Shown here one piece after another: positions 16,380 to 41,197 of a stretch of 64,000 nucleotides of DNA. The notes under the pieces are model-generated. The model saw nothing but the letters and a program-made list of their open reading frames with translations. It ran no database searches and was not told the DNA's origin. The stretch is taken from NCBI GenBank assembly GCA_027491915.1, contig JAOZGC010000002.1, forward strand, positions 384,001 to 448,000, given 5' to 3'. This DNA is from Thermoproteota archaeon (GTDB taxonomy: Archaea; Korarchaeota; Korarchaeia; Korarchaeales; Korarchaeaceae). The translations under genes and the position numbers were made by a program. The first letter of the stretch is position 1, and each line of letters starts with the position of its first letter.

Positions 16380-17423
16380 TCACACCCCACCCATGACGTA
16401 GGCCATGATGGCCTTCTGCACGTGGAGCCTGTTCTCCGCCTCGTCGAAGACCACGCTGTGGGGGCCGTCTATCACGTCGTCGGTGACCTCCATGCCCCTG
16501 TCAGCCGGCAGGCAGTGCAGGTATATCACGTCTCCCTTGGCCCTATCCAGCTTCTCCTGGGTGGTTATCCAGTCCTTGTGCTTGTTCATCAGGTCTATCA
16601 TCCCCCTCTCGTCCACCTCCGGCACCTTGGGCGGCATGAACTCCAGGGAGCCCCAGCTCTTCGGGTAGACCACGTCCGCCCCCTCGAAGGCCTCGTCCAT
16701 GTCGTACGAGATCTCAAAGCTCCCGCCGTACCTGTCCGCGTTATCCTTGGCCATCTCAATTATGTCCGGGTGGAGCTCGAGCCCCCGCGGGTGGGCCAGC
16801 GTCACGTCAGCCCCGAACCTGGTGAATATGAGGACGGCGCTCTGGGGGACGGCCACCGGCTTAACGCCCGCGCTGTAGGCCCAGCTGACCACCACCTTCT
16901 TCCCCTCGAGCCTGCCCTTGTACTCCATGACCGTCATGAGGTCGGCCATCGCCTGGTTCGGGTGATACACGTCGTCCTCCATGTTTATCACGGGTATGGA
17001 CGCCCAGTGGGCGAACTCCCTCACTATCCTGTCCCCCTTCCCGTAGATCCACTGGACCGGCTCCCCGTAGATCCTTATGGCTATGGCGTCCCCGTACCTG
17101 CTGAGGACTCGGGCCACGTCCGAGATCCTCTCGGTCTTGTAGGCTATCTCTTCCCCCTTGAGCGCCGGGGCGTAGACGGACTTCGGGGTCAGGTATATGC
17201 CCTGTCCCCCCAGCTGGAAGATCCCGGTCTGGAAGCTGTTCCTGGTCCTGAGGCTGCTGTTGTAGAAGAGCATGTATAGGGTCCTGCCCTCCAGCAGCCT
17301 GTGCGGAATTCTCTGCCTCTGCTTCGCCTTTAAATCGAAGGCCAGCTTCAGCACGGCCTCCAACTCTTCCCTACTCCACTCCTGGGTGGAGATGAAGTCC
17401 CTTCCCCTGAGATTCACCACCAA
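16380..17423 (-). CDS. Carbamoyltransferase, YgeW/AOTCase-like knotted subgroup
   Basis: SSLRTRNSF, HPNQAMAD, SWAYS..KPVAVPQS, YPKSW, HCLPADRG, EAENR; lacks the OTCase DxxxSMG motif. Confidence 0.85.
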   Translation of the reverse strand: MVVNLRGRDFISTQEWSREELEAVLKLAFDLKAKQRQRIPHRLLEGRTLYMLFYNSSLRTRNSFQTGIFQLGGQGIYLTPKSVYAPALKGEEIAYKTERISDVARVLSRYGDAIAIRIYGEPVQWIYGKGDRIVREFAHWASIPVINMEDDVYHPNQAMADLMTVMEYKGRLEGKKVVVSWAYSAGVKPVAVPQSAVLIFTRFGADVTLAHPRGLELHPDIIEMAKDNADRYGGSFEISYDMDEAFEGADVVYPKSWGSLEFMPPKVPEVDERGMIDLMNKHKDWITTQEKLDRAKGDVIYLHCLPADRGMEVTDDVIDGPHSVVFDEAENRLHVQKAIMAYVMGGV

Positions 17424-17746
17424 GGGTTGTCCCCCGGGGGCCCGGCCCCGGGCGGCGAAAACATAAACCTATCGGGCGCCGGCCTCACCCTGTGGGCGGA
17501 CGCCGGGCGGGACGCCTCTGAGCCATTCCAAGACCCCCAACCCGCCACCCGAGATAGGAATCGAGACGGGCCGCCCGGGTTGGGCGCGGGCATCTCGCCC
17601 CTCGGGTGTCCGATCCCGAATAATCCCGGGCGCTGGAGGTCGATCCTCGGGGAGCGGCTGGCCCCCGTCAACTTTTAACTCGGATTTCGCTCCAAATTGG
17701 TGGCACCTCGCCCTTGTTGGCCGACATATTTTTGGCCAATTTTTAA

Positions 17747-19102
17747 ATGGAGTCGATTAGGTTGACCGGGATGGGTCGGAGAGCCGTCCGGACCGGCCTG
17801 AGGTTGGCCTCGGTCGCTTGGATCTCGATCTCCATGGCGGCGACGGCGGCCGCCGTCGCCGGGGTCGGAATCGACTCGGTGGCCAGGGTCCTGACGTCCG
17901 AGTGGTACCTCGGCGTGGCCTTCTGGTTCCTCGTCCCCCTGGGGTGGCTCTCCCTCATATCCCTCCGGAGGCTAAGGCCGGGAAGGCCGGCGCTGCTGGG
18001 CGTGGACGTTCCCTGGCTCGGGGCCGCCCTGGCCCTCATGACCCTCTCGGTGCTCGCCGAGGCGGCCGCCGAGGCCGGGCCCGTGGATCCGGCGGTCTAC
18101 GTCGCGTCCACAACCGTCCCGGAGTCGCTGGGGATAGTCTCCTTCTTCACCTTCGTGGTCGACCTCTTCGAGACCTCTGGGCTGGCCCCCCGCCCCGGGA
18201 GGAGGGTCTCGCCGTTGATCCACGGAGTCGCGGCGGCGGCGATGGCCGCCCCGGCCCTGCTGGCCCTGATCTTCGCGGTCCGGTCCGGGAGGATCTCCCC
18301 CTGGGACGGAGTCGCCTTCGGCTTAGCGGCGGCCTGGCTGACCCACCTCCTGGCCAGGGCGGTCTCCGTACCGAGCGAGGCTCAGGAGGCGGCCGGTTCA
18401 GCGTGGGTGCTGGCTCTGGCGGCCCTGGCGCTCCAGCTCTCCAACCTGTGCTCTTGGTTCATCTCAGAGGCGGCCTCTCCCTCCCCCGTCTCGGGCCCGA
18501 TGGGGGTTCTCAGCGACGCAATGGACCTGATCAGCTGGACCCTGATCCCGCTGTCAGTCCTTTCCCTGGTTGGGTTCAGGGTGGAGTCCGCCGCGGCCGG
18601 GGTGGTCGAGCTGGTCGAGGTGCCCACCACGGGCCCGGTGCCGGGCGGCGTGTGGGAGAGGGCCCTCGCCCTCTCCCGGGGAGGGAGGGTGATAGTGGTG
18701 GGGAGGAGGTGGGTCCCCTGGATAGGGGCCCTGCCCCCCGGGAGGGGGGCTGCCATATACCTGACGGCCACGGTCGACTCGCCCAGGGAGCTCTCGCCCC
18801 GGGAGTTCGAGTGCCCCCCGGATCCGGAGACCCTGGCCGGCCTGGTGTCGACTCTGTCCGGGGGGTCGAGGTCGGCGGTCGTGGTGGACGACCTTTCCGA
18901 CCTGATACTCCTCTGCGGCCTGGACAAGGTTACGTCCTGCGCCCCGACCATGAGGGGACTGGCCGAGGGCGGGATATCCTTTCTGCTGCTCCTGAGGAGG
19001 GGGTCGGTGGGTCCCGGGGATCTCGCCTCCCTGAGGGAGGCGTTCGGGGGGAGGGAGTCCAAGGAGATCGCGGAGATCCGGGCGGTGGGCGATTCAAACT
19101 GA
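17747..19102 (+). CDS. Polytopic membrane protein with C-terminal DUF835/KaiC-like inactive ATPase domain
   Basis: About 8 TM segments, then a soluble domain with VVVDDLSDLILLCG; no Walker A; start uncertain. Confidence 0.6.
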   Translation: MESIRLTGMGRRAVRTGLRLASVAWISISMAATAAAVAGVGIDSVARVLTSEWYLGVAFWFLVPLGWLSLISLRRLRPGRPALLGVDVPWLGAALALMTLSVLAEAAAEAGPVDPAVYVASTTVPESLGIVSFFTFVVDLFETSGLAPRPGRRVSPLIHGVAAAAMAAPALLALIFAVRSGRISPWDGVAFGLAAAWLTHLLARAVSVPSEAQEAAGSAWVLALAALALQLSNLCSWFISEAASPSPVSGPMGVLSDAMDLISWTLIPLSVLSLVGFRVESAAAGVVELVEVPTTGPVPGGVWERALALSRGGRVIVVGRRWVPWIGALPPGRGAAIYLTATVDSPRELSPREFECPPDPETLAGLVSTLSGGSRSAVVVDDLSDLILLCGLDKVTSCAPTMRGLAEGGISFLLLLRRGSVGPGDLASLREAFGGRESKEIAEIRAVGDSN

Positions 19103-19273
19103 GTCTAGCGAGCCGGTCGGCGGATCCCCGGCCGATCTGCCCCCGAGATCGGGTCGGCGGATCGGAGCCCCGGCCCAGTCCCGGGAGGCCGGGCCCCAGG
19201 AGGTCAGATTAATATGTTGTCCTCCCCGGGCTCACGAGTCTCGGCGGCGACCGCCGGATCAGGAGGGGTAAGC

Positions 19274-20860
19274 TTGTCGGTTGGACGGGAGGAATCCGCG
19301 TCGGTCGGCGGCCATCCCGGCGAGGCGGGGTTGGCCGGGCCCCCGCTGGTCAGGATGGAGGGGATAGTGAAGAGGTTCCCTGGGGTCCTGGCCAACGACC
19401 ACGTCGACTTCGAGCTGGTGCCCGGGGAGGTGCACGCCCTGCTGGGGGAGAACGGGGCGGGCAAGACCACCCTCATGAACATCCTGTTCGGCATATACAC
19501 CCCGGACGAGGGCAGGATATACGTCAGGGGGGAGGAGGTATGGATAGGCTCCCCGAGGGACGCCATAAGGCTGGGGATAGGGATGGTCCATCAGCACTTC
19601 CTTCTGGTCGACAGGCACACCGTGGCTGAGAACGTAGCCCTCGGGTTCGCCGAGAGCCAGCTCTCCCCCCTGAGGGAGGTCAGGCGGAGGATATCTGAGT
19701 TCTCCGAGAGGTACGGCCTGAAGGTGGACCCGGACGCCTACGTGTGGCAGCTCTCCGCCGGGGAGCAGCAGAGGGTGGAGATAATCAAGGCCCTCTACGC
19801 CGGGGCGGACATCCTGATACTGGACGAGCCCACGTCCGTCCTCACCCCCCAGGAGACCAGGGAGCTCTTCGAGGTGCTGCGCAGGATGAGGGACGAGGGG
19901 AAGGGCGTGATCTTCATAACCCACAAGCTGGAGGAGGTCATGGCCGTGGCGGACAGGGTCACCGTCCTGCGCAGGGGGAAGGTGATCGGGACAGTCCCGG
20001 CCTCCGAGACGGACGAGAGGAGCCTGGCCAGGATGATGGTCGGCAGGGAGGTACTCTTCAGGCTGGAGAAGGGTGAGGTCCAGGTGGGTCCCCCGGCCCT
20101 CGAGGTCAGGGACCTCTGGGTGGTTGGGGACAGGGGGCTGGACGCCGTCAGGGGGGTCACCATGACGGTGAGGAGGGGGGAGATATACGGGATAGCCGGG
20201 GTCGCGGGGAACGGCCAGAGGGAGCTGATAGAGGCCATAGCCGGGCTGAGGAAGGTTAAGTCTGGCTCCATCCACATATCCGGGGTGGACGTGACCAACA
20301 AGAGCCCGAAGGTCATCCACGGGATGGGGGTGGCCCACGTGCCCGAGGAGAGGCTCAGGCACGGCATAGTCCCGAACCTGAGCGTGGCCGAGAACCTGGT
20401 CCTGAAGGACTACGACAGGGAGCCCTTCTCGAGGGGGGTCCTCCTGAACTACGAGGCCATAGAGAGGAACGCGGAGGACCTGGTGGAGAGGTTCGAGATA
20501 GTGACCCCGAGCATCAGGACCCCCGCGAAGCTCCTCTCGGGGGGGAACATACAGAGGCTGATATGCGCCAGGGAGTTCTCCAGGGAACCCAAGGTGATCC
20601 TGGCCGCCCACCCGACTTACGGCCTGGACGTCGGGGCCACCGAGTCCATCAGGAGGCTCCTGCTGGAGGAGAGGTCCAGGGGGGCCGCCGTCCTCCTGGT
20701 CTCCGAGGATCTGGAGGAGGTGCTGAACCTGAGCGACAGGGTCGGCGTTATGTACGGGGGGGAGATCGTCGGTGAGTTCAGGCCAGGGGAGGTCGACATG
20801 GAGGAGGTGGGCCTAATGATGGCCGGGGTCAGGAGGGGCGGATCCCAGGCGGCGGGGTGA
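19274..20860 (+). CDS. Nucleoside-type ABC transporter ATP-binding protein (tandem NBD)
   Basis: GENGAGKTT, GMVHQHF, LSAGEQQR, LILDEP, LSGGNIQR; TTG at 19274 follows SD AGGAGGGG. Confidence 0.92.
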   Translation: MSVGREESASVGGHPGEAGLAGPPLVRMEGIVKRFPGVLANDHVDFELVPGEVHALLGENGAGKTTLMNILFGIYTPDEGRIYVRGEEVWIGSPRDAIRLGIGMVHQHFLLVDRHTVAENVALGFAESQLSPLREVRRRISEFSERYGLKVDPDAYVWQLSAGEQQRVEIIKALYAGADILILDEPTSVLTPQETRELFEVLRRMRDEGKGVIFITHKLEEVMAVADRVTVLRRGKVIGTVPASETDERSLARMMVGREVLFRLEKGEVQVGPPALEVRDLWVVGDRGLDAVRGVTMTVRRGEIYGIAGVAGNGQRELIEAIAGLRKVKSGSIHISGVDVTNKSPKVIHGMGVAHVPEERLRHGIVPNLSVAENLVLKDYDREPFSRGVLLNYEAIERNAEDLVERFEIVTPSIRTPAKLLSGGNIQRLICAREFSREPKVILAAHPTYGLDVGATESIRRLLLEERSRGAAVLLVSEDLEEVLNLSDRVGVMYGGEIVGEFRPGEVDMEEVGLMMAGVRRGGSQAAG

Positions 20861-20864: not shown

Positions 20865-21941
20865 ATGAGGCTGGTGGTGGAGAAGAGGACCGTCGCGTCC
20901 AGGAGGTTCTCGGTCGCCGTCAGGGTTGCTTCGGTGGCCGCGGCCCTGCTCACCATGGCCGCCGTCTTCGCCGGGTACGGCCTGGACCCGGTAAGGGTGT
21001 ACGGCGGCATATTCTCCAAGGCCTTCGGAACGCCGGTGGGACTCGCCGAGACCGTGGTCAGGATGATCCCCCTCCTGCTGATAAGCTCCGGGCTCGCCCT
21101 GGTGTTCAAGGCCCAGTTCTGGAATATAGGGGCGGAGGGCCAGTTCCTGGCCGGGGCCATGGCCGCCTTCGTGGTGGCCACCTCCCTCCCGGACCTGCCC
21201 CCCCACCTGCTGATCCCCCTCATGTTCGCCGTCGGGTTCCTGGCCGGGGCCGCCTGGGGGGTGCCGACCGCCTTCATGAGGGCGAAGCTGAACGTCAACG
21301 AGGTGATAACCACCCTGATGTTCACCTACATACTCGACTGGATCTTCCAGTGGACCCTCTCCGGCCCGTGGAAGGCCAGGGAGACCGTCGGCCAGCTGAC
21401 CTACTCGGGTTTCAGGCACTCCGTCGTCATAACCGAGAACGCCTGGCTCCCCCTGATAGAGGGGACCAGGGTCCACTGGCCCACCCTCGCCCTGGCCGTG
21501 GCGGCCGCGATCGCGGCCTACCTCGTCGTCTCCAGGACCACCTTCGGGTACGAGCTCAGGGTCGTCGGGGACAACCCGGAGGCGGCCCGGGCGGCCGGAA
21601 TAAGCTACTCCAAGGTGGTCTCGGTGGGCATGATCATAAGCGGCGGGCTGGCGGGCATGGCGGGGGTCGGGGAACTGGCGGGGATCCAGCACAGGTTCAC
21701 GGCCGAGTTCCTGACGGGCTACGGGTACGATGCGATAATAACGGCTTGGCTCGGTGGGATGAACCCCGTCGGGCTCCTGGTGGCCAACTTCCTCTTGGGG
21801 GGCCTGGTGGTCGGGGGGGACTACCTCCAGATCAAGTTCAGGCTCCCGGGGGGGATGATCGACATGTTCAACGGCACGATCCTGTTCTTCGTGCTGGCCT
21901 TCGAGTTCCTCCTCAGGTACAGGATCAGGATAAGGAGGTGA
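20865..21941 (+). CDS. Nucleoside ABC transporter permease 1
   Basis: WNIGAEGQ, VNEVITTLM, TTFGYELRVVGDNPEAARAAGI. Confidence 0.9.
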   Translation: MRLVVEKRTVASRRFSVAVRVASVAAALLTMAAVFAGYGLDPVRVYGGIFSKAFGTPVGLAETVVRMIPLLLISSGLALVFKAQFWNIGAEGQFLAGAMAAFVVATSLPDLPPHLLIPLMFAVGFLAGAAWGVPTAFMRAKLNVNEVITTLMFTYILDWIFQWTLSGPWKARETVGQLTYSGFRHSVVITENAWLPLIEGTRVHWPTLALAVAAAIAAYLVVSRTTFGYELRVVGDNPEAARAAGISYSKVVSVGMIISGGLAGMAGVGELAGIQHRFTAEFLTGYGYDAIITAWLGGMNPVGLLVANFLLGGLVVGGDYLQIKFRLPGGMIDMFNGTILFFVLAFEFLLRYRIRIRR

Positions 21942-21949: not shown

Positions 21950-22885
21950 ATGCAGGCGGAGCTGATATCCAGCGTCCTCTGGATCGGGTTGAGGTCCGGC
22001 ACCCCCCTCCTGCTGGCCACCGTGGGGGAGATATACGCCGAGAGGTCCGGGATCCTCAACCTCGGGATAGAGGGGATGATGATAATAGGGGCCTTCACCG
22101 CCTTCGCGGTGGGCCAGGCGACCTCCAGCCCTTGGCTGGCCATGGCGGCCGCCGCCGCGGCCGGGCTGGCCGCCTCCCTAATACACGCCTTCATCAGCAT
22201 CCACCTCAGGGGGAACCAGGTGGTCTCGGGGCTGGCCCTGACCATGTTCGGCCTCGGGCTCACCAGCGTGGCCGGCGGGACCTTCGTCGGCGCGGCCCTC
22301 CCCAGGGAGGCCAGGATAATCCCATCCCCCCTGAGCGAGGAGCTGGCCGCCATCCCCGTGATCGGGAAGGCCCTGTTCGACCAGGATCCCTTTCTGTATC
22401 TCAGCATCCTGATATCGGTCCTGCTGTGGTTCGTCCTCTACAAGACGAAGTTGGGCATAGTGATCAGGTCCGTGGGTGAGAATCCGGCCGCCGCCGACGC
22501 CCTCGGGGTCAACGTATACGCGGTCAGGTACGCGTGCACGGCGCTGGGGGGGGCCCTGGCCGGCATGGCCGGATCATACATCACCCTCTCCCTGAGGCCC
22601 GGGTGGGTAGAGAACATCACGGCCGGCAGGGGTTGGATAGCGGTGGCCCTGACGATCTTCGCCCTCTGGGACCCCCTCAAGGCCATAGCCGGGTCCTACC
22701 TATTCGGGATAGTGGAGGCCGGGACCTACAACCTCCAACCCCTGGGTTTCAGTCAGTGGCTCCTCAACGCCATACCTTACGTCCTCACGGTCGTCATACT
22801 AGTTGCGGGCGCCACCGAAACCATGAGAAAGAAGATGGGAGCTCCAGCGGCCCTCGGCGTCCCTTACGTTAGGGGAGAGAAGTGA
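21950..22885 (+). CDS. Nucleoside ABC transporter permease 2
   Basis: ERSGILNLGIEGMM, NQVVSG, GENPAAADALGVNV, GRGWIAVA, APAALGVPY. Confidence 0.9.
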   Translation: MQAELISSVLWIGLRSGTPLLLATVGEIYAERSGILNLGIEGMMIIGAFTAFAVGQATSSPWLAMAAAAAAGLAASLIHAFISIHLRGNQVVSGLALTMFGLGLTSVAGGTFVGAALPREARIIPSPLSEELAAIPVIGKALFDQDPFLYLSILISVLLWFVLYKTKLGIVIRSVGENPAAADALGVNVYAVRYACTALGGALAGMAGSYITLSLRPGWVENITAGRGWIAVALTIFALWDPLKAIAGSYLFGIVEAGTYNLQPLGFSQWLLNAIPYVLTVVILVAGATETMRKKMGAPAALGVPYVRGEK

Positions 22886-23048: not shown

Positions 23049-24344
23049 ATGAGCTCGACCCAGTGGGCGGCGATAGCCCTCATCCTGTTCGTGGTGGGGG
23101 TGGGCATAGGCTACATGGCGGCCCCCAAGGGGGCCGCGCCGGCCCAGTGCCCCCCGTGCGAGTGCCCGCCGTGCCAGCCGCAGGCCGCCCCCCAGTATAA
23201 GGCGGCTTTCATATACATAGGGCCCATAGGGGACTACGGCTGGACCCACGAGCACGAGATGGCCAGGAGGGCCGTCCAGGAGATGTTCCCGTGGCTCAAC
23301 ACCACCTACATAGAGTCCGTCCCCCCCGACCAGGCCGAGGGCAAGATGGAGGAGCTGATCTCCGAGGGGTACAACATCATATTCACCACCAGCTTCGACT
23401 ACATGGATCCGACCATAAACGAGGCCAAGAAGCACTCTGACGTGTTCTTCTTCCACTGCTCCGGATACAAGCGCTGGAAGAACTCCGGCACCTACTTCGC
23501 GGACTTCTATCAGCTCTACTACCTAAACGGCCTCATGGCCGGCGCCCTGACCCGCACCGGGAAGGTCGGCTACGTGGCCGCCTTCACCATACCGGAGGTC
23601 GTCAGGCACATCAACGCCTTCGCCATAGGGGTCCACGAGGTCAACCCGGACGCCGTGGTCCTGGTGAGGGAGATAGGGGCCTGGTACAACCCGGACCTGG
23701 CGGCGGACGCGGCCGAGTCCCTGATCTCAGAGGGAGTCGACGTCCTGGCCTTCACCGAGGACTCCCCGACCGTACTGCAGGTGGCCCAGCAGCACCACGA
23801 CAGGGGTGAGAGGGTGCTGGCCTTCGGCCACTACAGCCCGATGAAGCAGTACGGGCCGGACGTGTGCGTCAGCGGTCAGATAGCGCACTGGGACAGGATA
23901 CTGGAGGACATACTGGCCAAGATATACTCCGGAGTCTACACCACCCAGAACCTGGAGAACGTCGACTACTGGTGGAAGCTAAAGGAGGGCGCCGTCGAGC
24001 TCGGGTGCGCCGACAACGAGCCCATCAACCCGATATTCATAGACGAGCTCAGGCAGGTCCACGTCAACGAGACCGTCCTCCTTCCCAACGGGACGGTGCT
24101 GGAGAACCCCGACGTCTACAAGCTGGTCATGGCCAGGATGATACAGATGGGCGTGGTCTGGCACCCGGACACCGGCACCTACACCTTCACCAACGACGAG
24201 TGCTTCGACCCGTTCACCGGTCCACTCTACGACAACCAGGGTCACCTGATGGCCCCGGAGGGTCAGAGGCTCGGGCACGACGCCCTGTGGACCATGCAGT
24301 GGTGGTACCAGAACGTGCAGGGACCGCCCCTAGGGGGAGGATGA
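23049..24344 (+). CDS. BMP/PnrA-family substrate-binding protein (purine/nucleoside)
   Basis: N-terminal TM anchor; GPIGDYGWT, IFTTSFDYM, HCSGYK, IPEVVRHINAFAIG. Confidence 0.9.
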   Translation: MSSTQWAAIALILFVVGVGIGYMAAPKGAAPAQCPPCECPPCQPQAAPQYKAAFIYIGPIGDYGWTHEHEMARRAVQEMFPWLNTTYIESVPPDQAEGKMEELISEGYNIIFTTSFDYMDPTINEAKKHSDVFFFHCSGYKRWKNSGTYFADFYQLYYLNGLMAGALTRTGKVGYVAAFTIPEVVRHINAFAIGVHEVNPDAVVLVREIGAWYNPDLAADAAESLISEGVDVLAFTEDSPTVLQVAQQHHDRGERVLAFGHYSPMKQYGPDVCVSGQIAHWDRILEDILAKIYSGVYTTQNLENVDYWWKLKEGAVELGCADNEPINPIFIDELRQVHVNETVLLPNGTVLENPDVYKLVMARMIQMGVVWHPDTGTYTFTNDECFDPFTGPLYDNQGHLMAPEGQRLGHDALWTMQWWYQNVQGPPLGGG

Positions 24345-24370: not shown

Positions 24371-24539
24371 GGTTAACACGTTATCCGCTTCGGAGTTCGA
24401 TCCCCTCGAGCGACCCCTCTCGGCCTCAAGTTAGACCTGAGAACCTTGGTAGGTCTGAATTCGTTGATCCGGAAAGTTTTATTTGAACCGCCCTCGCATT
24501 CTGCGGTTTCCGCCCGATCAGACCGAGCGGGGTGTCCGG

Positions 24540-26940: not shown

Positions 26941-26945
26941 TCCGG

Positions 26946-28130: not shown

Positions 28131-28166
28131 TGGTTTGGATAGGTCGGTTCGGGTGGTGTGGTGAGT

Positions 28167-30609: not shown

Positions 30610-30625
30610 AACGACGGCGGACCTG

Positions 30626-33876: not shown

Positions 33877-33923
33877 CCAGTATATAGGGAAATTTTTATG
33901 AATTCTTTCCCTATATACCGGTC
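33875..33923. promoter_or_regulatory. Perfect 13-bp inverted repeat enclosing a TATA box
   Basis: GTATATAGGGAAA (33880-33892), 13-nt spacer TTTTTATGAATTC, TTTCCCTATATAC (33906-33918); outer GACC/GGTC. Confidence 0.75.
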
Positions 33924-35306
33924 GTGCTTCCCAGGGAGACGCTGGTCAGGGTGCTGAGGGACCAGCAAGAGGGGGTACCTCCCCCCCTCGTGAGGAGGGA
34001 TATCTCGATACCCACCCGCCCACCCCTCAGGAGGGCCGTCTCCGTGGTGGGGCCCAGGAGGGCCGGGAAGACCTACTCGATGTTCCAGCTCATGAGGGAC
34101 CTGATGTCCGCCGGGGTCGCCAGGGAGAGGCTCCTCTACCTGGACCTCGAGGACTACAGGCTGGCCGGAGCCGACCAGCGTGACCTCGGGAGGATAATAG
34201 ACCTCCACGCGGAGATTTACCCTGAGGCCTCTCGGGGGGAGAGGTGGATCTTTCTGGACGAGGTTCAGGCGATCCTCGGGTGGGAGGGGGTCGTCAGGAC
34301 CCTCCTGGACCTGGGGAGATCGTGGGTCTTCGTCACGGGTTCCTCCTCCAGGCTCCTGTCCAGGGAGGTGGCCACCCAGCTCAGGGGTAGGACCCTGACG
34401 TTCGAGCTGTTCCCCTTCTCGTTCAGGGAGTTCTTGAGGGCCAGGGGGGCCGGGGACCTGGTCAACGCCGCCGCCGGGGCGTCGAGCTCCGAGGAGGCGC
34501 GCCTGAAATCGCTCCTCCGGGAGTACCTCTCGCGGGGCGGGTACCCGGAGGCGGCGCTGAACCCCGGACTCGGGGAGAGGATACTCAGGGAGATATGGGA
34601 GGTGACCGTTTCCAGGGACCTGATAGACAGGTGGGGGATAAGGAACGTCAGGGCCCTGAGGCTCCTGGTGGGGGCGGTCAGGAGGTCGAGGGAGTTCTCG
34701 GTGCACGGGTTCTACAGGTACCTGAAGTCGATGGGCCTCAGGGTCGGCAAGGACACCCTCTACAACTACCTGGAGTACCTGAGGGACGCCATGATCGTCT
34801 TCCCCCTGCGGAGGTACTCCAGGTCCGTCAGGGAGATCGAGGCCACGTCTCCAAAGCTCTACCTGGTGGACAACGGGCTCTACCTCGGGGAGGTCGGGGA
34901 GGGGGAACTCATGGAGAACCTGGCGTTCCTGGAGCTGAGGCGGAGGGGGGCGGTGGAGGGAGAGAGGCTCTTCTACTGGAGGTCCAGGTCGGGATCCGGG
35001 GAGGTGGACTTCCTGATTGCGGACTCCCGACTCCGCCCGACGAGGCTCGTCCAGGTGACCCGAGAGGTCAGGTGGGACGACCCCAGGCAGGTCAGGAGGG
35101 AGCTTGGCTCCCTCGTCAGGGCGGCCCGGGAGACCGGGTGCCGGAGCCTTTGGGTGGTCACCTGGGATCAGGAGGGAGCCGAGGTCTTCGAGGGCGCGGA
35201 GGTCGAGCTGGTCCCCATGTGGAGGTGGGCGCTCGGGTTCCCCTCGGGGTTCTGGGAGGGGGTATCCCCCAGATTCCCGGCGGGCGCTCACCCGCCGGGG
35301 GAGTAG
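33924..35306 (+). CDS. AAA+ ATPase with DUF4143 domain (COG1373-like)
   Basis: GPRRAGKT, IFLDEVQ, VTGSSS, LFPFSFREF, GGYPE, KLYLVDNG, EVDF...LVQVT. Confidence 0.9.
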   Translation: MLPRETLVRVLRDQQEGVPPPLVRRDISIPTRPPLRRAVSVVGPRRAGKTYSMFQLMRDLMSAGVARERLLYLDLEDYRLAGADQRDLGRIIDLHAEIYPEASRGERWIFLDEVQAILGWEGVVRTLLDLGRSWVFVTGSSSRLLSREVATQLRGRTLTFELFPFSFREFLRARGAGDLVNAAAGASSSEEARLKSLLREYLSRGGYPEAALNPGLGERILREIWEVTVSRDLIDRWGIRNVRALRLLVGAVRRSREFSVHGFYRYLKSMGLRVGKDTLYNYLEYLRDAMIVFPLRRYSRSVREIEATSPKLYLVDNGLYLGEVGEGELMENLAFLELRRRGAVEGERLFYWRSRSGSGEVDFLIADSRLRPTRLVQVTREVRWDDPRQVRRELGSLVRAARETGCRSLWVVTWDQEGAEVFEGAEVELVPMWRWALGFPSGFWEGVSPRFPAGAHPPGE

Positions 35307-36652
35307 CGGAACCCCGAGACGTCCCCCAGGATGAGGACCGGCTCCTTCCCCAGATCCAAGACCACCTCCCCCGCCCCCCGGGCTACCTCGCCGCCGGCCA
35401 GGTCCAGGACCGTTAGGTTCCCCCTCCCTTCTATCACCAGGGGACCGACCTGCTCCGGCCCCCTGACGACCCACCAGTCCTGCCAGACGACCGAGATCGG
35501 CCCTTGGGGCGTCGAGAACTTGAACAGGTAGGTCAGGGTGTCGTTCCGGGAGAGCTCCAGCTCGGCCCTCCCGAGCAGCCTCGAGAGGGTCTGGTACGCG
35601 TAGAACGCCCTCTTCTTGACCCCCTCCCCCCCGTCCCATGGTCCCTTCCCGTCGTAGACGAGTCCCGACTGGTCGAAGAATCCCTCGCCGGTCCCCTCGT
35701 AGCTGGGCTCCTCGACGTAGCACCAGAACACCTTCTCCACCCCCACGGCCCGGAGCACCACGAACCTCTTCACCAGGTCGGCGGCCTGCTCCTCCTCGGT
35801 CTGACACACCTCGCCGACGCAGCCGGAGAAGGTGGACGTCTCCTGGACCCAGATGGGCCTGTCACCCAGCCCGTACTCCTCCAGGACGGACCTCATCTCC
35901 CTGTATATCTCCACGCCGGACAGGTAGTTCTCGGCCCCGGGGAGCCGCCTGGACGGGGCCGCCAGCCCGTAGTAGTGGAAGTTGAACACGTCCACCAGGT
36001 CCCCGACCCCCCGATCCAGGAAGGCCCTCAGGTAGGGGATCAGGATGGACCCGTCGAGCAGGCCCCCCATGACGACCTTGCAGTCGGGGCAGGCCCTCTT
36101 TATCGCCGAGGCGTACACGGAAAATCTATCCGCGTACTCTTCCGGGCCGCAGGACGTCCCCCACCCGCCGTTCTCCTCGTTTCCCACCATCCAGAGGGTC
36201 ACCCTCCTCCCGACCAGCTCCGCTCCCCTGCCCTCGGTGTAGTACCTGACTATCTCCTCGACGGCCCGGGACGTCTCGTTGGGATCCCTCATCTCGGGGG
36301 CCCAGAAGGCTGCCAGCGGCTCCGATCCGTTCCCCACAACCCACCTCATCGCCTTTGTGTTCCTGATCTCCTGCTTGGATCCCACGTAATCGGGGGTGGC
36401 CCCCAGGAAGAAGCCGTAGCTGTGTACGTCCACCATGAGCTCGGAGAGGTACCTCTTGTCGTGGACTATACCCGTTATTCCGAAGAAACCGTCCCTCTCA
36501 GCCGGTTTGGGTTGGGGCTCCACCCCTCCCCCGGGCTCCACCCCTCCCCCGGGCTCCACCCCTCCGGGGCCTCTCGTGGCGAGCGCGGCCACAAAGAAGA
36601 ACGCGACGGCGACCGCCGCCAGGAGAATGGGGATCCTGCTCCCCCTTCCCAT
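35288..36652 (-). CDS. Membrane-anchored clan GH-A glycoside hydrolase (GH5/GH39-like)
   Basis: N-terminal TM; WMVGNEE (acid/base), FNFHYY, PIWVQETS (nucleophile), EQAADL, KVFW. Confidence 0.75.
   Translation of the reverse strand: MGRGSRIPILLAAVAVAFFFVAALATRGPGGVEPGGGVEPGGGVEPQPKPAERDGFFGITGIVHDKRYLSELMVDVHSYGFFLGATPDYVGSKQEIRNTKAMRWVVGNGSEPLAAFWAPEMRDPNETSRAVEEIVRYYTEGRGAELVGRRVTLWMVGNEENGGWGTSCGPEEYADRFSVYASAIKRACPDCKVVMGGLLDGSILIPYLRAFLDRGVGDLVDVFNFHYYGLAAPSRRLPGAENYLSGVEIYREMRSVLEEYGLGDRPIWVQETSTFSGCVGEVCQTEEEQAADLVKRFVVLRAVGVEKVFWCYVEEPSYEGTGEGFFDQSGLVYDGKGPWDGGEGVKKRAFYAYQTLSRLLGRAELELSRNDTLTYLFKFSTPQGPISVVWQDWWVVRGPEQVGPLVIEGRGNLTVLDLAGGEVARGAGEVVLDLGKEPVLILGDVSGFRYSPGG
36515..36565. 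repeat. 18-bp tandem repeat (about 2.8 copies) encoding a PGGGVE linker
   Basis: GGGCTCCACCCCTCCCCC twice plus a partial third copy. Confidence 0.9.
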
Positions 36653-36748
36653 GGGCGCGAAACCGACCGCTTGAATAAAAACGGCGGCCCCGCCGGCCGC
36701 TCGGCCGCTTTTTAATGGTCCCCGCGCGCCGCCCGACCGGGACCTCCT

Positions 36749-38602
36749 CTGGACGAGGGCGGGGAGATCTCGCTGAAGAGGGACGTCGGCTGGTTCGGAT
36801 CTTTCGCGATGGGCTACGCCGACGTCGGGGCCGACGTGTTCATGGCGCTCGGGATGGTGGCCTCCTATGCCGCCGGGGCGCTTCCCCTGGCCTTCTCGGT
36901 GGCCGCCGTCGTTTACGTCCTCACCGGCCTCGTCTACGCCGAGCTGGCCTCAACCTACCCCTACGCCGGCGGGGCCCAGGTTTACGCCGCCCGCGGCCTG
37001 GGAGACGCGGCTGGCTTCGTCGCCGGGTGGGCCCTCATCCTGAGCTACACCGTGGACGTGGCCCTCTTCTCCCTTGCGGCGGCCGGTTACCTGTCCTACT
37101 TCCTCCCCTGGCTTGCCTCCCGCGTCGAGCTGTTCGGCCTCGGCGTGCGCAGCGTCTCGGCGTGCGCAGCTCTTGTCTCGGCCTCCCTGACGGCCCTGAA
37201 CCTGGTCGGCATAAGGGGATCCTCCCGCCTGAACGAGGCCATGGTGGCGCTGGGCCTGACCGTCCAGGCTCTGCTCCTGATCGTTGGTCTCGCCAGTTTG
37301 GATTTGGAGTCCCTCTCCGCTTCCATCTCTGAGGTGGGCAGCCCTGGGGCCAGGCCAGGGGTCTCCTACCTCCCCGGAATAGACCTGAGGACGCAGAACT
37401 TCCTCTACGCGTCGACCCTGGCCATGAGTTCCTTCGTAGGGGTTGAGTCCATCGCCCAGGCCGCCGAGGAGATAAGGAGACCCCACAGGTGGATCCCCGT
37501 GGCCACCAAGCTCTCGGTGGCCTCCGTCCTCGTGTTCGCCCTGGGCCTCTCGGCGGTGGGAGTCGGGACGGTCGGGTGGAGGGCCCTGGCTGCGGCGGAG
37601 GAGAGGCCCCTGACCGCCCTGGCCTTCTCCCTCCCCCTGATCGGTCCGATCGCCTCTCCGGTCGTGGCCGCCACGGGCTTCGCCATAAACCTGGTCTCGG
37701 CAAACACCGGGATAATAGGGGTCTCCAGGGTGGCCTACTCCATGGGGAAGTACGGCCTGCTCCCCTCTTGGTTCAGGGTGGTCCACCGAAGGTGGAGGAC
37801 GCCGGCGCGCACCGTGCTGACGTTCGGGGCCATAGGCTCGGCTGCCGCCCTGGTGGGGGGGCTGGATTCCGTCGCCGACGTCTACGCCTTCGGCGCCCTG
37901 ATCTCCTATCTCTTGGTTCACCTGAGCGTCATAAAGCTGAGGAACATGGACAGGGACGCCTACAGGCCCTGGAGGTCTCCTGGCTCCGTCTCTATCTCCG
38001 GGCGCGAGGTCCCGCTCGTCGGGGCGGCCGGCGCGCTGGCGACGGCCTCGATGCTCGCCCTGGTGGCCGCCATGCACCCGGTGGGGAGGACCATGGGCTC
38101 GGCGTGGATCGCGGCCGGACTGGCCGTATACGCCTCCTACAGGAGGGCCGTCGGCCTGCCGATCCTGGGAAGGCTGTCCGGTTCGGCGGTGAAGCCCGCC
38201 TCCCGCGTACTCGACGTGTTGGTTCCCCTGGAGCCCAGGTTCCCCCCCGAGGTCATCGCCGAGGCCGTCTCCTCGGCCCTCAGGGACAGGGCGAGGGTCC
38301 ACCTCCTGGCGGCCGTCGACCCGACCTCGCCGGGCGCCGCGTCCGAGGCCGAGGAGCTTTCTCGCTTCCTGGACGAGGTCGCCTCCCTCCTCAGGGACAG
38401 GGTGGCCGGGGTCGGCGCCTCCCTGAGGTGGGGAGATCCGGCCGACGCCACCTTAGAGGAGGCGAGGCGCGGCTCCTACGACCTGATTCTGATCCTGGCC
38501 GGAAGGAGGCCCGTCAAGGGATCCCCTGGCGGAATTATTAGTCGGCTGACCAGGGATCTCCCCGGCAGGCTGGAGGTGGTGAGATGGGGAAGTTCCTGGT
38601 GA
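36749..38602 (+). CDS. APC-family amino acid permease with C-terminal USP-like domain
   Basis: LKRDVGWFGSFAMGYADVGAD, YAELAS..AGG, FVGVESIAQAAEE, SRVAYSM, RPWRSP; USP-like tail; start proposed at CTG 36749. Confidence 0.85.
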   Translation: MDEGGEISLKRDVGWFGSFAMGYADVGADVFMALGMVASYAAGALPLAFSVAAVVYVLTGLVYAELASTYPYAGGAQVYAARGLGDAAGFVAGWALILSYTVDVALFSLAAAGYLSYFLPWLASRVELFGLGVRSVSACAALVSASLTALNLVGIRGSSRLNEAMVALGLTVQALLLIVGLASLDLESLSASISEVGSPGARPGVSYLPGIDLRTQNFLYASTLAMSSFVGVESIAQAAEEIRRPHRWIPVATKLSVASVLVFALGLSAVGVGTVGWRALAAAEERPLTALAFSLPLIGPIASPVVAATGFAINLVSANTGIIGVSRVAYSMGKYGLLPSWFRVVHRRWRTPARTVLTFGAIGSAAALVGGLDSVADVYAFGALISYLLVHLSVIKLRNMDRDAYRPWRSPGSVSISGREVPLVGAAGALATASMLALVAAMHPVGRTMGSAWIAAGLAVYASYRRAVGLPILGRLSGSAVKPASRVLDVLVPLEPRFPPEVIAEAVSSALRDRARVHLLAAVDPTSPGAASEAEELSRFLDEVASLLRDRVAGVGASLRWGDPADATLEEARRGSYDLILILAGRRPVKGSPGGIISRLTRDLPGRLEVVRWGSSW

Positions 38603-38853
38603 TCCTCAACGTCTACGTTGACAGCAGGAGGCTGGAGGACGTGGTGGAGGCCCTCCTAGGGATGCCGGAGGTGGTGGACCTGTACGAGGTGACCGGGAGC
38701 TACGACGTGGTGGCGGTGGTGGAGACCGACTCCAAGGAGAGCTTCAGGTCTCTGCTGGTCAAGAGGATCCTGAGGATAGGGGGGGTCAAAGAGACCAACA
38801 GCTCCGTCATCCTCCACGTCCACAAGAGGGCCGGGGAGGCGGTGGAGGGTTGA
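38584..38853 (+). CDS. Stand-alone Lrp/AsnC ligand-binding (RAM) domain
   Basis: PEVVDLYEVTGSYDVV...IGGVKETNSSV; no HTH. Confidence 0.85.
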   Translation: MGKFLVILNVYVDSRRLEDVVEALLGMPEVVDLYEVTGSYDVVAVVETDSKESFRSLLVKRILRIGGVKETNSSVILHVHKRAGEAVEG

Positions 38854-39269: not shown

Positions 39270-40072
39270 TCGCGTCGCCCTCCCCACCCGACAGGGGGGA
39301 CGCGCTCCGCGTCGTCGGCTGGCTCGCCCTGGCCCAGTCCGTCGCCGGGGCCGCGGCCTGGCGGTTCGGAGTCATCCCTGAGTACCAGGTCGGTCCGGCC
39401 GAATCGGCCGGCCTGTCGGCCGGCTACGTCCTGGCCGTCTTCGCGGCGACGACGCTGATGTTGTACCTGCTCAGGAGGAGGCTCCTCTCCCTCCTGAGGC
39501 TTCTGATCTCGGCCTCCCTCTCCCTGTCCACCCTGGTCACCACGGCCTACCTCCTGGAATCCGCGGGCCTCCGGCCCGAGGTTTACCTCCCCGCGTCGTG
39601 CGCCGCGGCCCTCCTGGTCCTCCGCCCCGGGCTGCCCGGGAACGCGGCGAAGGCCGTATCGGCCGGGGCACTGGGCTACTTCTTCTCCACCCTCTTCCCC
39701 ACTCACTTCTCCCTCATCCTACTCGCGATGATGGCCGCATACGACGCCTACGCGGTCTTCAGGGGTCCCCTGTCCAGGATCTTGTCGGACGCGGCCTCGG
39801 TCTCCGAGCCCCGGGGCGGCCGGGTGATGGACCTGCTGACCATCCAGACCGGCGGGGTCTCCATAGGGTACGGCGACGCCTTCTTCTACTCCCTGGCGAC
39901 CGCGGTGTCCGTGGGCTCCCTCCCGCCGGTCCCCGCCCTCGCCTCCGTGGTCGCCCTGGAGGCCGGGATAGCGGCGACGCTGCTGGCCCTCCCGAAGGTC
40001 GGGAGGCCCCTGCCGGGGCTGACCCTCCCGGTGGCCCTGTGGCTGGCCTCCCTCCTGCTCTGGGGACCGTAA
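39266..40072 (+). CDS. Presenilin/SPP-like GxGD intramembrane aspartyl protease
   Basis: Multi-TM; AYDAYAVF (YD), IGYGDAFFYS (GxGD), PLPGL (PAL-like). Confidence 0.85.
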   Translation: MIASPSPPDRGDALRVVGWLALAQSVAGAAAWRFGVIPEYQVGPAESAGLSAGYVLAVFAATTLMLYLLRRRLLSLLRLLISASLSLSTLVTTAYLLESAGLRPEVYLPASCAAALLVLRPGLPGNAAKAVSAGALGYFFSTLFPTHFSLILLAMMAAYDAYAVFRGPLSRILSDAASVSEPRGGRVMDLLTIQTGGVSIGYGDAFFYSLATAVSVGSLPPVPALASVVALEAGIAATLLALPKVGRPLPGLTLPVALWLASLLLWGP

Positions 40073-41197
40073 TCACCCCGGCGACGGCCGAGGCAGCCCG
40101 GAGGAGGCCAGGCGGGCGTATCCCTCCGCGGCCCTCCCCAACTCTCCCACCTCCACCGACTCGTCCGGCGTGTGGGCGGCGGACTCCTCGCCGGGGCCGT
40201 AGCCCAGGGTCGGGATCCCCTCCTCCCCGGCCGAGTAGGAGCCGTCCGTGCCGAACCTCCACACGGTCCTCCCAGCGCCGAGCACCCGCTGGGCCCAGTC
40301 GACCAGGGGACCCTCGTAGATCCAGGCCGGGAAGAAGGCCTCCACCTCCTCCGAGAATCCGGTGTAGCACCTGATCTCCCTCCGGACCACCCTGGCCTCC
40401 CTGGTTCCCCCGGCCGAGAGGAACCTCAGCACCGACTCCCTGGTCTCCCCCGGGACCATCCTGTAGTCCACCAGGACCTCGCAGGAGTCGGGGACCACTG
40501 GTATCTGCCCCGGACTGCAGGAGATGGCCACAGGGCAGGCGGTAGCCCTGCCGAGCAGGGGGTGATCGGGCAGGTCAGCCTCCCCCAGCTCCAGCGCTGC
40601 CCTGGCCGCCTTGACCAGCGCGCTGTCCCCGACGTCCGGCATGCTGGAGTGGCTGGTCCTCCCGCGGAACTCCAGGGCTACCTCGACCCTCCCCCTGTGT
40701 CCCACGGCCACCCTGAGTCCGGTGGCCTCCCCCAGGATGACCAGGTCCGGCCTCACCCCGAGCTCGTCCAGCGCGTGCCTCAGGCCGAACCCCTCCTGAT
40801 CCTCCTCGTGGACCACGAAGGCGAGGTACAGGTCGCTGGCCGGCTCCCCGATGAGCCCCACGGAGTGCACCATGGCCGCCACCGCCCCCTTCATGTCGGC
40901 CGCCCCCCGACCCACGAGCCTGCCCCCCCTGACCTCGCCGGCGAACGGGTCCACCGACCAGGCCGCCTCGTCTCCCGGGGGGACCACGTCCATGTGCCCG
41001 TCGAACAGGATCGCGCCCTCCCCGGACCCGGAGACTTTGGCCAGGACGTTTCCGACCCCATCCACCCTAACCCAGTCGACCCCCACCCTCGACAGCTCGT
41101 CCCTTATCAGGGCGGCCACGTCGCCCTCCGCCCCGGAGGGACTCGGGGTCCTCACCAGCTCCGCCGCGAACTCCACCAGTTCCCGGTCCGTGGGCAT
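40073..41197 (-). CDS. M20 metallo-amidohydrolase, YgeY-like
   Basis: LFDGHMDVV, GRGAADMKG, VHEEDQEG, GHRGR, WRFGTDG, GYGPGEE..AHTPDE. Confidence 0.8.
   Translation of the reverse strand: MPTDRELVEFAAELVRTPSPSGAEGDVAALIRDELSRVGVDWVRVDGVGNVLAKVSGSGEGAILFDGHMDVVPPGDEAAWSVDPFAGEVRGGRLVGRGAADMKGAVAAMVHSVGLIGEPASDLYLAFVVHEEDQEGFGLRHALDELGVRPDLVILGEATGLRVAVGHRGRVEVALEFRGRTSHSSMPDVGDSALVKAARAALELGEADLPDHPLLGRATACPVAISCSPGQIPVVPDSCEVLVDYRMVPGETRESVLRFLSAGGTREARVVRREIRCYTGFSEEVEAFFPAWIYEGPLVDWAQRVLGAGRTVWRFGTDGSYSAGEEGIPTLGYGPGEESAAHTPDESVEVGELGRAAEGYARLASSGLPRPSPG

Follow-up and report, generated by a model that had tools for sequence, protein, structure and literature searches.

We analysed a 64,000-nucleotide stretch of an archaeal genome (the window, G000:C4:384001-448000; the source genome G000 spans 1.12 Mb in four contigs and is 91% complete), in which genes for three large subunits of the AOR (aldehyde oxidoreductase) family, two polyferredoxins, a PreA-like flavoprotein, and a cyclic amidohydrolase form one tightly packed row. 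We propose that this cluster is an archaeal version of the 2,8-dioxopurine-type reductive purine degradation of bacteria, in which the AORs stand in for xanthine dehydrogenase (Xdh) and are wired to the ring reductase; we assign a probability of roughly 45% to this reading. Its parts differ in strength. Sequence comparison indicated that the pathway probably degrades a purine-type ring reductively, because several independent links of the gene neighbourhood point to it. That the AORs themselves act directly on the ring is a proposal, which we place just short of even odds.

The row comprises seven genes on the forward strand, from FeS_A to AOR_C, over about 9.5 kb. All window proteins were compared with Pfam and NCBIfam, and equivalog scores were set against the curated bit cut-offs. 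The first gene encodes FeS_A, a WorS-like polyferredoxin (24540-25037, Fer4 family matches), and is followed by AOR_A (25030-26940; AFOR_N 281.8 bits, AFOR_C 434.1 bits), the PreA-like protein (26946-28130; a DHO_dh barrel and a C-terminal domain with two 4Fe-4S clusters, from DHO_dh and Fer4 matches), the second polyferredoxin FeS_B (28158-28670, Fer4 family matches), AOR_B (28663-30609, AFOR_N and AFOR_C), a cyclic amidohydrolase of the hydantoinase/allantoinase/dihydroorotase group (30626-31969, NCBIfam models), and AOR_C (31969-33876, AFOR_N and AFOR_C). The junctions calculated from the coordinates are -8, +5, +27, -8, +16, and -1 nt, so that the overlaps or gaps under 40 nt described earlier were borne out (range -8 to +27 nt); the genes of FeS_A and FeS_B each overlap that of the partner AOR by 8 nt. 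An A/T-rich BRE/TATA-like element read from the sequence at 24472-24485 on the forward strand, approximately 55 nt upstream of the FeS_A start codon, is a possible promoter of the operon. A look-up of sequencing runs for positions 24400-33900 listed none, RNA sets included. Upstream, also on the forward strand, lies an ABC importer composed of a double ATPase (19214-20860, two ABC_tran domains), two permeases (20865-21941 and 21950-22885, BPD_transp_2), and a Bmp/PnrA-type substrate-binding protein (23049-24344; PF02608 Bmp, 132.7 bits), whose ligand is probably a nucleoside or base. On the reverse strand, a carbamoyltransferase gene (16380-17423; OTCace_N and OTCace domains in Pfam) lies beyond the importer, and a YgeY-like M20 hydrolase gene (40073-41197) lies 6.2 kb past AOR_C, close to the 6 kb previously estimated. 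Every gene named in the original prediction was recovered by Pfam and NCBIfam at the place given for it, and the same searches agreed with it that xdh, ssnA, ygeX, preT, and carbamate kinase genes are absent from the window.

The arrangement is far beyond chance. Two sister genera match it gene by gene, and its core recurs in other phyla. Forty relatives (G001-G040; G-numbers denote genomes and L-numbers loci of this analysis) were searched with the PreA-like protein, matches with E < 1e-100 being taken as orthologues; these relatives have completeness figures, as does G000, and the other genomes have none. Orthologues were identified in five genomes of the sister genus g2, three of the sister genus g3, one of another family, and one of another family in the phylum, and in no genome of genus g4 (ten searched). 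Six g2 and g3 genomes have an identical order of importer, FeS_A, AOR_A, PreA-like protein, FeS_B, AOR_B, and amidohydrolase. The importer genes keep their order in G001, G005, G009, G013, G006, and G014, and the binding-protein orthologues of the sister genera are 55-67% identical. In these genera, AOR_A orthologues show 74-80% identity and AOR_B orthologues 63-72%. AOR_C is directly next in g2 and approximately 13 kb off in G006. The rows of G001 and G005 extend with an APC-family permease gene that adjoins AOR_C, the M20 hydrolase gene, and then a carbamate kinase gene, whereas the row of G025 reads PreA-like, FeS, MoaD, AOR, AOR. True SsnA is encoded directly upstream of the importer in G001 (553.2 bits, cut-off 444) and at the same place in G006 and G014; in G025 it is encoded elsewhere. 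AOR_A matches of at least 48% identity were present in all ten genomes with a PreA-like orthologue (E < 1e-100) versus 0/10 genomes of g4, and also in G010 (one of them beside a PreA2 paralogue) and the incomplete G016 and G031; since kin genomes are not independent, this co-occurrence is descriptive only.

A scan with alignment A2, limited to one genome per species, yielded 80 loci. In 14 of the 15 loci with at least 52% identity, an AOR gene adjoins the PreA-like gene, mostly in the order FeS-AOR-PreA-like, and these AOR-linked loci belong to Thermoproteota, Bathyarchaeia, Promethearchaeota, Thorarchaeota, and unclassified archaea. The fifteenth locus, on a 12-kb Hadarchaeales contig, instead has an SsnA-like gene followed by the PreA-like gene. 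Three loci are presumably of Asgard archaea (L063, L064, and L065, the first being the least certain). L063 and L064 contain an amidohydrolase and, further on, FeS, AOR, PreA-like, M24 and PfkB (both on the opposite strand), MoaD-like, cyclic amidohydrolase, FeS, and AOR genes; L065 is alike through the cyclic amidohydrolase and has no second FeS-AOR pair. AOR_A is approximately 50% identical to its Asgard orthologues, and AOR_C shares 57-61% identity with the second AOR in the Asgard clusters; hence, A-type and C-type AORs recur from Thermoproteota to Asgard archaea. In other phyla, too, a polyferredoxin gene stands directly upstream of the A-type AORs. Paralogous clusters were found in G005:C5 and G025:C7, where PreA2, two AORs of the clade described below, FeS, SsnA-like, and cyclic amidohydrolase genes are grouped. 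These clusters (L135, G005:C5:1-14000, which also contains an M20 gene, and L134, G025:C7:28001-48000, which does not) may serve a second heterocyclic substrate.

The bacterial route with which we compare the cluster was described from gut bacteria in two papers of 2025 (Li et al., PMC12507026; Liu et al., bioRxiv 10.1101/2025.04.24.650524). According to the accessible portions of these two papers, urate is converted to 2,8-dioxopurine by XdhD or DOPDH, the ring is reduced by YgfK, or by UacX in C. difficile, SsnA and HyuA open the rings, YgeW and YgeY cleave the ureido groups, YgeW yielding carbamoyl phosphate and, via YqeA, ATP, and YgeX catalyses the last step, with SsnA being the best marker of the pathway. 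UacX is characterized in the accessible part of PMC12507026 as a PF01180 protein of SsnA neighbourhoods that has no FAD domain and is thought to need a donor such as ferredoxin. The archaeal system has several features in common with the C. difficile-type cluster (XdhD, UacX, SsnA, HyuA, YgeW or UacY, YqeA, YgeY, and YgeX): the reductase is a PF01180 protein lacking an FAD/NAD module, the amidohydrolase is of the hydantoinase group, a carbamoyltransferase is accompanied by carbamate kinase, and the M20 hydrolase is YgeY-like. The sister genera additionally share the true SsnA at the cluster edge. The system studied here differs in its archaeal host, in the three AORs and two polyferredoxins of the operon, in a carbamoyltransferase that is no YgeW equivalog, and in that no Xdh family member, YgeX, or true SsnA was found in this genome.

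Bacterial relatives of the PreA-like protein, which are 40-48% identical to it, lie in clusters with true SsnA (L067 and L072), true YgeY (L071, 573 bits; L068, 469 bits), and carbamate kinase (L072), and the PLP enzymes of the bacterial clusters scored as threonine-synthase-like rather than YgeX. Xdh parts were present in four of the seven bacterial PreA-like loci (L067, L068, L072, and L073) and an AOR in none. The original prediction of a nucleobase-degradation cluster akin to xdh/ygfK/ssnA/hyuA/ygeW/ygeY was thus supported by synteny, by the motif group of the reductase, and by SsnA in the kin. Both roles that it offered for the AORs, acting on the ring and supplying electrons, are compatible with these results. 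Its wording left purine and pyrimidine rings side by side; the neighbours fit a purine better than a pyrimidine. The AOR clade is linked to nucleobase-type genes elsewhere as well, namely those for SsnA, carbamate kinase, and amidohydrolases in the sister and paralogous clusters.

The PreA-like protein appears to be a UacX-type reductase without a PreT partner. Its gene is the sole DHO_dh gene of the genome. An identity as the NAD-dependent PreT/PreA enzyme was rejected, since the protein reached 196 bits on the PreA equivalog model (cut-off 335), no Fer4_20/PreT gene was found in the 91%-complete genome, and the catalytic-Cys loop of pig dihydropyrimidine dehydrogenase (DPD; N-L-S-C-P-H) is missing, with S-L-H-Y in its place. 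Biosynthetic dihydroorotate dehydrogenase (DHODH) was also rejected, as the score on pyrD_sub1_fam was 187 bits (cut-off 270) and the catalytic loop is absent. An alignment of 36 PreA-like proteins splits into two motif groups: group 1 has the loop E-x-S-(L/T)-H-Y-x-G together with ELWS and GW(L/M/I)SG, and group 2 keeps P-T-x-C-P-H. Group 1 comprises the window protein, the SsnA-linked bacterial proteins, and the AOR-linked archaeal ones except that of L074 (Hadarchaeum), which is 40% identical and does not have the group 1 loop. Compared with pig DPD, this group has no Cys671 loop and has Ser for Asn668, and the equivalents of Asn609 and Asn736 are kept; these four residues are ones that we take to have functional roles in the pig enzyme. 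Orthologues 68-81% identical to the window protein are clustered with true SsnA, which is the neighbourhood by which UacX is recognized. The alignment A4 of PreA-like proteins contains eight invariant Cys, corresponding to two clusters, and the 11-row polyferredoxin alignment A3 contains 16, enough for four 4Fe-4S clusters; FeS_A and FeS_B are 51% identical. A complex prediction for FeS_A (A3) and the PreA-like protein (A4) gave a score of 0.00 in two control-free runs and speaks neither for nor against a complex. Among the longer homologues, no AOR-PreA or FeS-PreA fusion was found, the three matches being all of the PreT-PreA type, which is weak evidence.

The hydrolytic enzymes were assigned less precisely than their first labels implied. 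The carbamoyltransferase, initially termed YgeW-like, is present; its best score was a narrow pass on NF003384, N-acetylornithine carbamoyltransferase (302.4 bits, cut-off 288), and the two YgeW models gave only 181-186 bits (cut-offs 453 and 500), so it is not a YgeW equivalog. Its nearest context-bearing kin sit in SsnA/YgeY clusters: it is 46-49% identical to the transferases of the bacterial SsnA/YgeY clusters L068, L071, and L072. Orthologues with 80-85% identity stand near the cluster in G009 and G006, 6-8 kb upstream, and a true ornithine carbamoyltransferase is encoded elsewhere in the genome. The M20 hydrolase is likewise present, but the YgeY label was too precise, as it reached 303.2 bits on the YgeY model NF009555 (cut-off 321); its orthologues in G001 and G005 are 58% identical and adjoin carbamate kinase. 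For the cyclic amidohydrolase, whose cluster position is kept in the sister genera, Asgard archaea, and Hadarchaeum, the scores were 330.5 bits on the allantoinase model (cut-off 357.85), 309.2 bits on D-hydantoinase (cut-off 393.25), and 290.5 bits on pyrC_multi (cut-off 279.05).

Genes for ygeX, ssnA, and arcC, which had been suggested for a genome-wide search, gave different outcomes. A true carbamate kinase was identified 100 kb from the window (G000:C4:547793-548749; 447.5 bits, cut-off 358), whereas ygeX and true ssnA were not found. This arcC gene stands beside an ECF-type transporter and a second BMP-type ABC importer (L004, G000:C4:547793-557090). The only SsnA-superfamily member in G000 scored 239-242 bits (cut-offs 444 and 455.5), is 31% identical to the SsnA of G001, and was best scored as a chlorohydrolase or deaminase. 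At the site of true ssnA in the sister genera, this genome has a gene for a 451-amino-acid predicted membrane protein (17747-19102, forward strand) with no Pfam or NCBIfam match, and a tblastn search of window positions 17300-19300 yielded only chance-level matches (E >= 0.1) and no ssnA remnant. The genome also encodes an AMP phosphorylase (598.8 bits, cut-off 535) and a RuBisCO large subunit, so the organism can probably use nucleotide ribose via the AMP phosphorylase/RuBisCO route of Thermococcus, which fits nucleoside feeding.

We compared the AORs with characterized members of the family, numbering residues after the Pyrococcus furiosus enzyme (PfAOR, PDB 1AOR). The genome contains six AFOR genes: the three of the operon, a fourth at 6567-8414 of the window, and two approximately 35 kb beyond the window, one of which is AOR_D. 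AOR_A, AOR_B, and AOR_C scored 267-282 bits on AFOR_N and 421-464 bits on AFOR_C; against 1AOR, AOR_A scored 484.9 bits and all three 449-485 bits, and the structure-linked scores were 449-497 bits for 1AOR and 9MQX and 395-446 bits for chain A of 8C0Z. The four solved AORs and the fourth AOR of the window have the patterns E-x-P-A-Y-D-x-R and R-G-(G/A)-C-H. In AOR_A to AOR_D, the last being a paralogue outside the operon, the patterns are E-(I/A)-(S/A)-(A/G)-Q-D-G-R and R-G-A-D-H (AOR_A, EISAQDGR and RGADH; AOR_B, EISGQDGR and RGADH). Tyr427 is therefore replaced by Gln and Cys447 by Asp in all four, and the same applies to 23/23 AORs of the loci L052-L075; we term this residue set, Thr243, Glu313, Gln427, Asp447, and His448, TEQDH. 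The accessible part of the classification paper of WOR enzymes (PMC13328260, section 5) lists Thr243, Glu313, Tyr427, and His448 as the little-varying set of the aldehyde-oxidising members. One of these four residues, Tyr427, is replaced in the cluster-linked AORs, which thus do not carry the full set. Among the 150 best representatives from a library of 1.8 billion proteins, T-E-Q-D-H occurred in six and T-E-Y-C-H in 27; this comparison used fast alignment, and residue calls for distant representatives are approximate there and in the tree set.

In a FastTree topology of 95 sequences, rooted on the sixth AFOR paralogue of the genome, every cluster-linked AOR fell into one clade, inside which an A/B/D-type and a C-type branch were separated. 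The phylogeny suggested for the three large subunits thus places AOR_A, AOR_B, and AOR_C in a separate clade with an altered active-site set. Only a few positions split the TEQDH clade from the canonical one (AOR_A 385, 438-458, and 478), and they are concentrated at 438-458, beside His448. The operon AORs also have an insertion after position 460 relative to PfAOR. AOR_A and AOR_B possess the four-Cys 4Fe-4S motif and are each paired with a polyferredoxin. AOR_C has no polyferredoxin of its own, and in its motif Asp replaces the first Cys (ADFACLQRC), a change kept in the C-type orthologues including two of Asgard archaea. Three AORs associated with a different PreA-like group (L076, L082, and L084) all have Trp and Cys at the two substituted positions. 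Their motifs are E-F-A-A-W-M-P-E and R-G-A-C-H, and their genes lie beside MtmB-like and B12-binding genes. In L076 and L084 (Chloroflexota), hydantoinase A/B, an octopine-dehydrogenase-like gene, and the Cys-containing PreA-like group accompany this AOR, and in L082 (Hadarchaeum) the latter two are present without hydantoinase A/B; these loci are another uncharacterised AOR-linked cluster for N-compounds.

The occurrence of Xdh-family genes varied among cluster-bearing genomes. No MoCoBD_1/Xdh match was obtained in the 91%-complete genome or in the window. Among 11 cluster-bearing genomes, of which five (those of Hadarchaeum, the three presumed Asgard archaea, and Bathyarchaeia) have no completeness figure, no Xdh-family gene was found in six: G000, G006, the three presumed Asgard genomes (L063-L065), and one of Bathyarchaeia. 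The idea that the AORs occur in place of xdh therefore fits this genome and does not hold as a universal rule. The stricter notion that cluster-bearing genomes never have Xdh was discarded, since G001, G005, G013, and G025 carry two MoCoBD_1 genes each and the Hadarchaeum genome (G045) carries four.

From these observations the following route can be proposed. The BMP-type ABC importer would take in purine nucleosides or bases, and the three paralogous TEQDH oxidoreductases would add or remove oxo groups at ring carbons, as the molybdenum Xdh-type enzymes do in bacteria. The hydroxylation of a ring carbon would formally be the same change in oxidation state as that of an aldehyde to an acid. 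Electrons would pass from the pterin site through the 4Fe-4S cluster of the AOR, the four clusters of the polyferredoxin, and the two clusters of the PreA-like protein to its FMN, where the UacX-type flavoprotein would reduce and thereby dearomatise the ring. Amidohydrolases, including the cyclic one of the cluster, would then open the rings. One ureido group would be converted to ATP by the carbamoyltransferase, through phosphorolysis to carbamoyl phosphate, and by carbamate kinase, and the other would be removed by the YgeY-like M20 hydrolase. The substrate, the AOR chemistry, complex formation, and tungsten as the metal of the cluster AORs are what we infer from this context. Action on the ring is favoured by the position of the AORs in the cluster, the lost Tyr, the conserved paralogue types, the Xdh-less genomes, and the formal likeness to aldehyde oxidation.

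In a further-reaching version, the TEQDH clade would consist of tungsten-dependent purine hydroxylases or dehydroxylases that form, with the polyferredoxin and the UacX-type flavoprotein, a redox machine complete in itself. Hydroxylation of the ring at the pterin site would release electrons that serve to dearomatise the same ring at the FMN site, the AOR paralogues might be regiospecific for different ring carbons or bases, and purine fermentation would then be possible without NAD(P)H, free ferredoxin, or a molybdenum hydroxylase. We offer this version tentatively and place it somewhat below even odds.

Several observations weigh against the proposed replacement of Xdh by AORs. Five of the 11 cluster-bearing genomes hold Xdh-family genes elsewhere, and those of G005 flank an allantoinase-like amidohydrolase. 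The closest solved relatives of the three operon AORs, 1AOR and 9MQX, are genuine aldehyde oxidoreductases, and Thr243, Glu313, and His448 are retained in AOR_A, AOR_B, and AOR_C. AOR_D belongs to the TEQDH clade, yet its context resembles AorABC and is devoid of purine genes. Neither true SsnA nor an SsnA orthologue was found in the 91%-complete genome, nor was diaminopropionate ammonia-lyase (YgeX; TIGR01747, E <= 0.001); because both enzymes are lacking, the bacterial route cannot run as described in this genome, and since SsnA is missing, the pathway here may be incomplete or differently wired. The amidohydrolase of the L063 cluster, the only one of the presumed Asgard clusters scanned, is deaminase-like and not a true SsnA. 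The tungstate-binding protein WtpA was not found in the genome by a search that did not cover TupA. We know of no AOR-family enzyme that acts on a purine.

Two of these contexts can be described further. The G005 locus (L133, G005:C4:48001-68000) has two Xdh-type large subunits, FAD subunits, and a long carbamoyltransferase-like gene around the allantoinase-like amidohydrolase; the G000 orthologue of this amidohydrolase (L002:8642-10027, 59% identical) stands alone, without those neighbours. FeS_D and AOR_D (G000:C4:484379-487731, L001:10379-13731) form a unit with its own polyferredoxin, an IF-2B-family gene downstream, and divergent genes for a MoaD-like protein and a PadH-like FAD/NAD oxidoreductase.

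The strongest competing explanation keeps the purine cluster and assigns the AORs a conventional role: as ordinary aldehyde oxidoreductases, they would supply the PreA-like reductase, by way of the polyferredoxins, with electrons of very low potential, the aldehyde coming from a pathway end product (for example, a transaminated diamino acid) or from central metabolism. We consider this explanation plausible, although the odds are against it. It requires only the canonical chemistry of the family, for which the retained residues and the nearest structures speak, and the order FeS-AOR-PreA-like resembles AorABC with a flavoprotein as the third subunit. The PreA-like reductase lacks an NAD(P)H module; reductases of the UacX type depend on a donor of low potential, and the accessible part of PMC12507026 (section 4) reports the reduction to be thermodynamically unfavourable. 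As no YgeX was found here, the end product may also differ, and G001 and G005 have a class-III aminotransferase gene at a distance of 4 kb from the carbamate kinase gene, with another in the window at 55748-57205. Nevertheless, no aldehyde-forming enzyme is conserved across the clusters, and a single aldehyde would hardly account for two or three distinct orthologous AOR types in each cluster. The clade has lost the Tyr427 of the aldehyde-oxidising set, and the genomes without Xdh would have no known means of making a 2,8-dioxo substrate. Electron supply from aldehydes and action on the ring share the same proposed electron path.

Alternatively, the substrate could be a pyrimidine or a single-ring amide (uracil, thymine, orotate, or hydantoin), degraded by a ferredoxin-dependent Pyd-like route in which the PreA-like protein would be a PydAc-type reductase, the cyclic amidohydrolase a dihydropyrimidinase, the M20 hydrolase or the carbamoyltransferase would cleave the N-carbamoyl amino acid, and the AORs would donate electrons or oxidise malonate semialdehyde. 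This explanation draws on the domain layout, which equals that of PreA/PydAc, on the single ring-opening amidohydrolase of the cluster in a genome with no SsnA, and on the redox-neutral route that malonate semialdehyde oxidation would give. We regard it as improbable, because the orthologues that are 68-81% identical in the sister genera sit with true SsnA, the catalytic-Cys loop of DPD and DHODH is absent and Ser stands where pig DPD has Asn668, the same motif group occurs in bacteria within SsnA/YgeY/Xdh clusters, and the ring-opening enzymes of the paralogous clusters are of two kinds, as would suit substrates with two rings. Fermentation of uracil with an AOR oxidising malonate semialdehyde, an earlier candidate, was demoted to this alternative once the SsnA links appeared. 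Finally, a lack of any shared function, with generic AORs among nucleotide genes or a biosynthetic dihydroorotate dehydrogenase and dihydroorotase, agrees with the PreA-like gene as the sole DHO_dh gene, the amidohydrolase passing the broad pyrC_multi cut-off, and the presence of an OMPdecase-family gene, but is very unlikely given the overlapping genes of the row, the core conserved across phyla, the low pyrD score and missing catalytic loop, and the sister genomes that keep the PreA-like orthologue plus a separate PyrD-looking match of approximately 300 amino acids.

Comparison with characterized enzymes further delimited the archaeal system. With AorABC of Aromatoleum aromaticum (PDB 8C0Z), it shares the AFOR_N/AFOR_C large subunit, a 16-Cys polyferredoxin gene just upstream, and a flavoprotein gene following. 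The archaeal flavoprotein is a DHO_dh/FMN barrel with two 4Fe-4S clusters instead of an FAD/NAD subunit, Gln and Asp take the places of Tyr427 and Cys447 of 8C0Z, and the context is that of N-heterocycle breakdown. In the accessible part of PMC13328260, WOR Class II is defined as WorL plus WorS, and Class III adds a third subunit. The adjacent small subunit of Class II with four 4Fe-4S clusters is matched by FeS_A/AOR_A and FeS_B/AOR_B and has no counterpart for AOR_C. PfAOR shares the fold family, Thr243, Glu313, His448, and, with AOR_A and AOR_B, the four-Cys motif, and differs in Gln427, Asp447, the insertion after position 460, the cluster Asp of AOR_C, and the dedicated polyferredoxins. 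A ferredoxin-dependent dihydropyrimidine dehydrogenase, PydAc of Clostridium chromiireducens, was reportedly described by Wang et al. in 2020. Compared by description only, it has in common with our protein the PreA-only architecture without PreT and a low-potential donor, and is set apart by the purine-pointing neighbours of the archaeal gene; the absence of the catalytic-Cys loop was judged against pig DPD. The molybdenum hydroxylases of the Xdh family, which hold the same cluster position in the bacterial relatives, would have an analogous role (oxo groups added to or removed from purine carbons and electron exit through Fe-S clusters); their fold and cofactor arrangement are unrelated, and they are therefore functional analogues and not relatives.

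A full-text literature search, covering sources other than subscription journals and supplements, retrieved no paper describing a cluster of AOR, PreA-like, and purine genes. The accessible text of the WOR classification paper (PMC13328260) contains no occurrence of purine, dihydroorotate, dihydropyrimidine, nucleo-, amidohydrolase, or uric, and the accessible portions of PMC12507026 and bioRxiv 10.1101/2025.04.24.650524 mention neither tungsten nor archaea. The paper on Wolframiiraptor reports six tungsten oxidoreductases, including three 'AOR-like' lineages, which are assigned to sugar and peptide aldehydes, and pyrimidin- and operon do not occur in it.

The remaining genes of the window were also inspected. 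An APC-family amino-acid permease (36809-38602, forward strand; AA_permease_2, 131.7 bits), the orthologue of which is 60% identical in G001 and G005, may carry an amino-acid end product or a substrate. Between AOR_C and this permease, at 33924-36652, lie a gene for an AAA_14/DUF4143 ATPase and, on the opposite strand, a 454-amino-acid gene without a family; the pair looks like a genome-specific insertion, because the permease adjoins AOR_C in G001 and G005. The fourth AOR of the window, at 6567-8414, has the canonical motifs E-M-P-A-Y-D-P-R and R-G-G-C-H and, by its sequence, appears to be the genome's ordinary aldehyde oxidoreductase; it is followed (to 10094) by a radical-SAM/SPASM gene scoring 284 bits on the tungsten-cofactor maturase model (cut-off 380). 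At 1877-3518, a divergent PP-loop ATPase-like gene (Asn_synthase/NAD_synthase match) and an AIR-carboxylase-family gene were found, a pair that presumably resembles LarE and LarB of nickel-pincer cofactor synthesis. Genes for IMP dehydrogenase and for a GMP synthase split into a separate amidotransferase and synthetase are located at 52442-55622, 11 kb from the M20 gene, which places functions of purine nucleotide interconversion near the proposed breakdown cluster. This split enzyme, an HMG-CoA reductase gene, and the A/T-rich TATA-like element before the operon are archaeal traits of the window. Its G+C content is approximately 68%, and the orthologous regions of the relatives range from 36 to 65% (G030, 36%; G002, 41%; G025, 44-47%; G005, 58-65%), indicating a wide drift of composition within one order or phylum.

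If the proposed function is true, the purine-linked clade would represent a new substrate class for the AOR family, with its first members acting on N-heterocycles, and would show that the chemistry of xanthine dehydrogenase has been solved a second time by unrelated pterin enzymes. The 2,8-dioxopurine route would then extend from gut bacteria to thermophilic and sediment archaea, including Asgard lineages, and part of the tungsten demand of these archaea would be explained.

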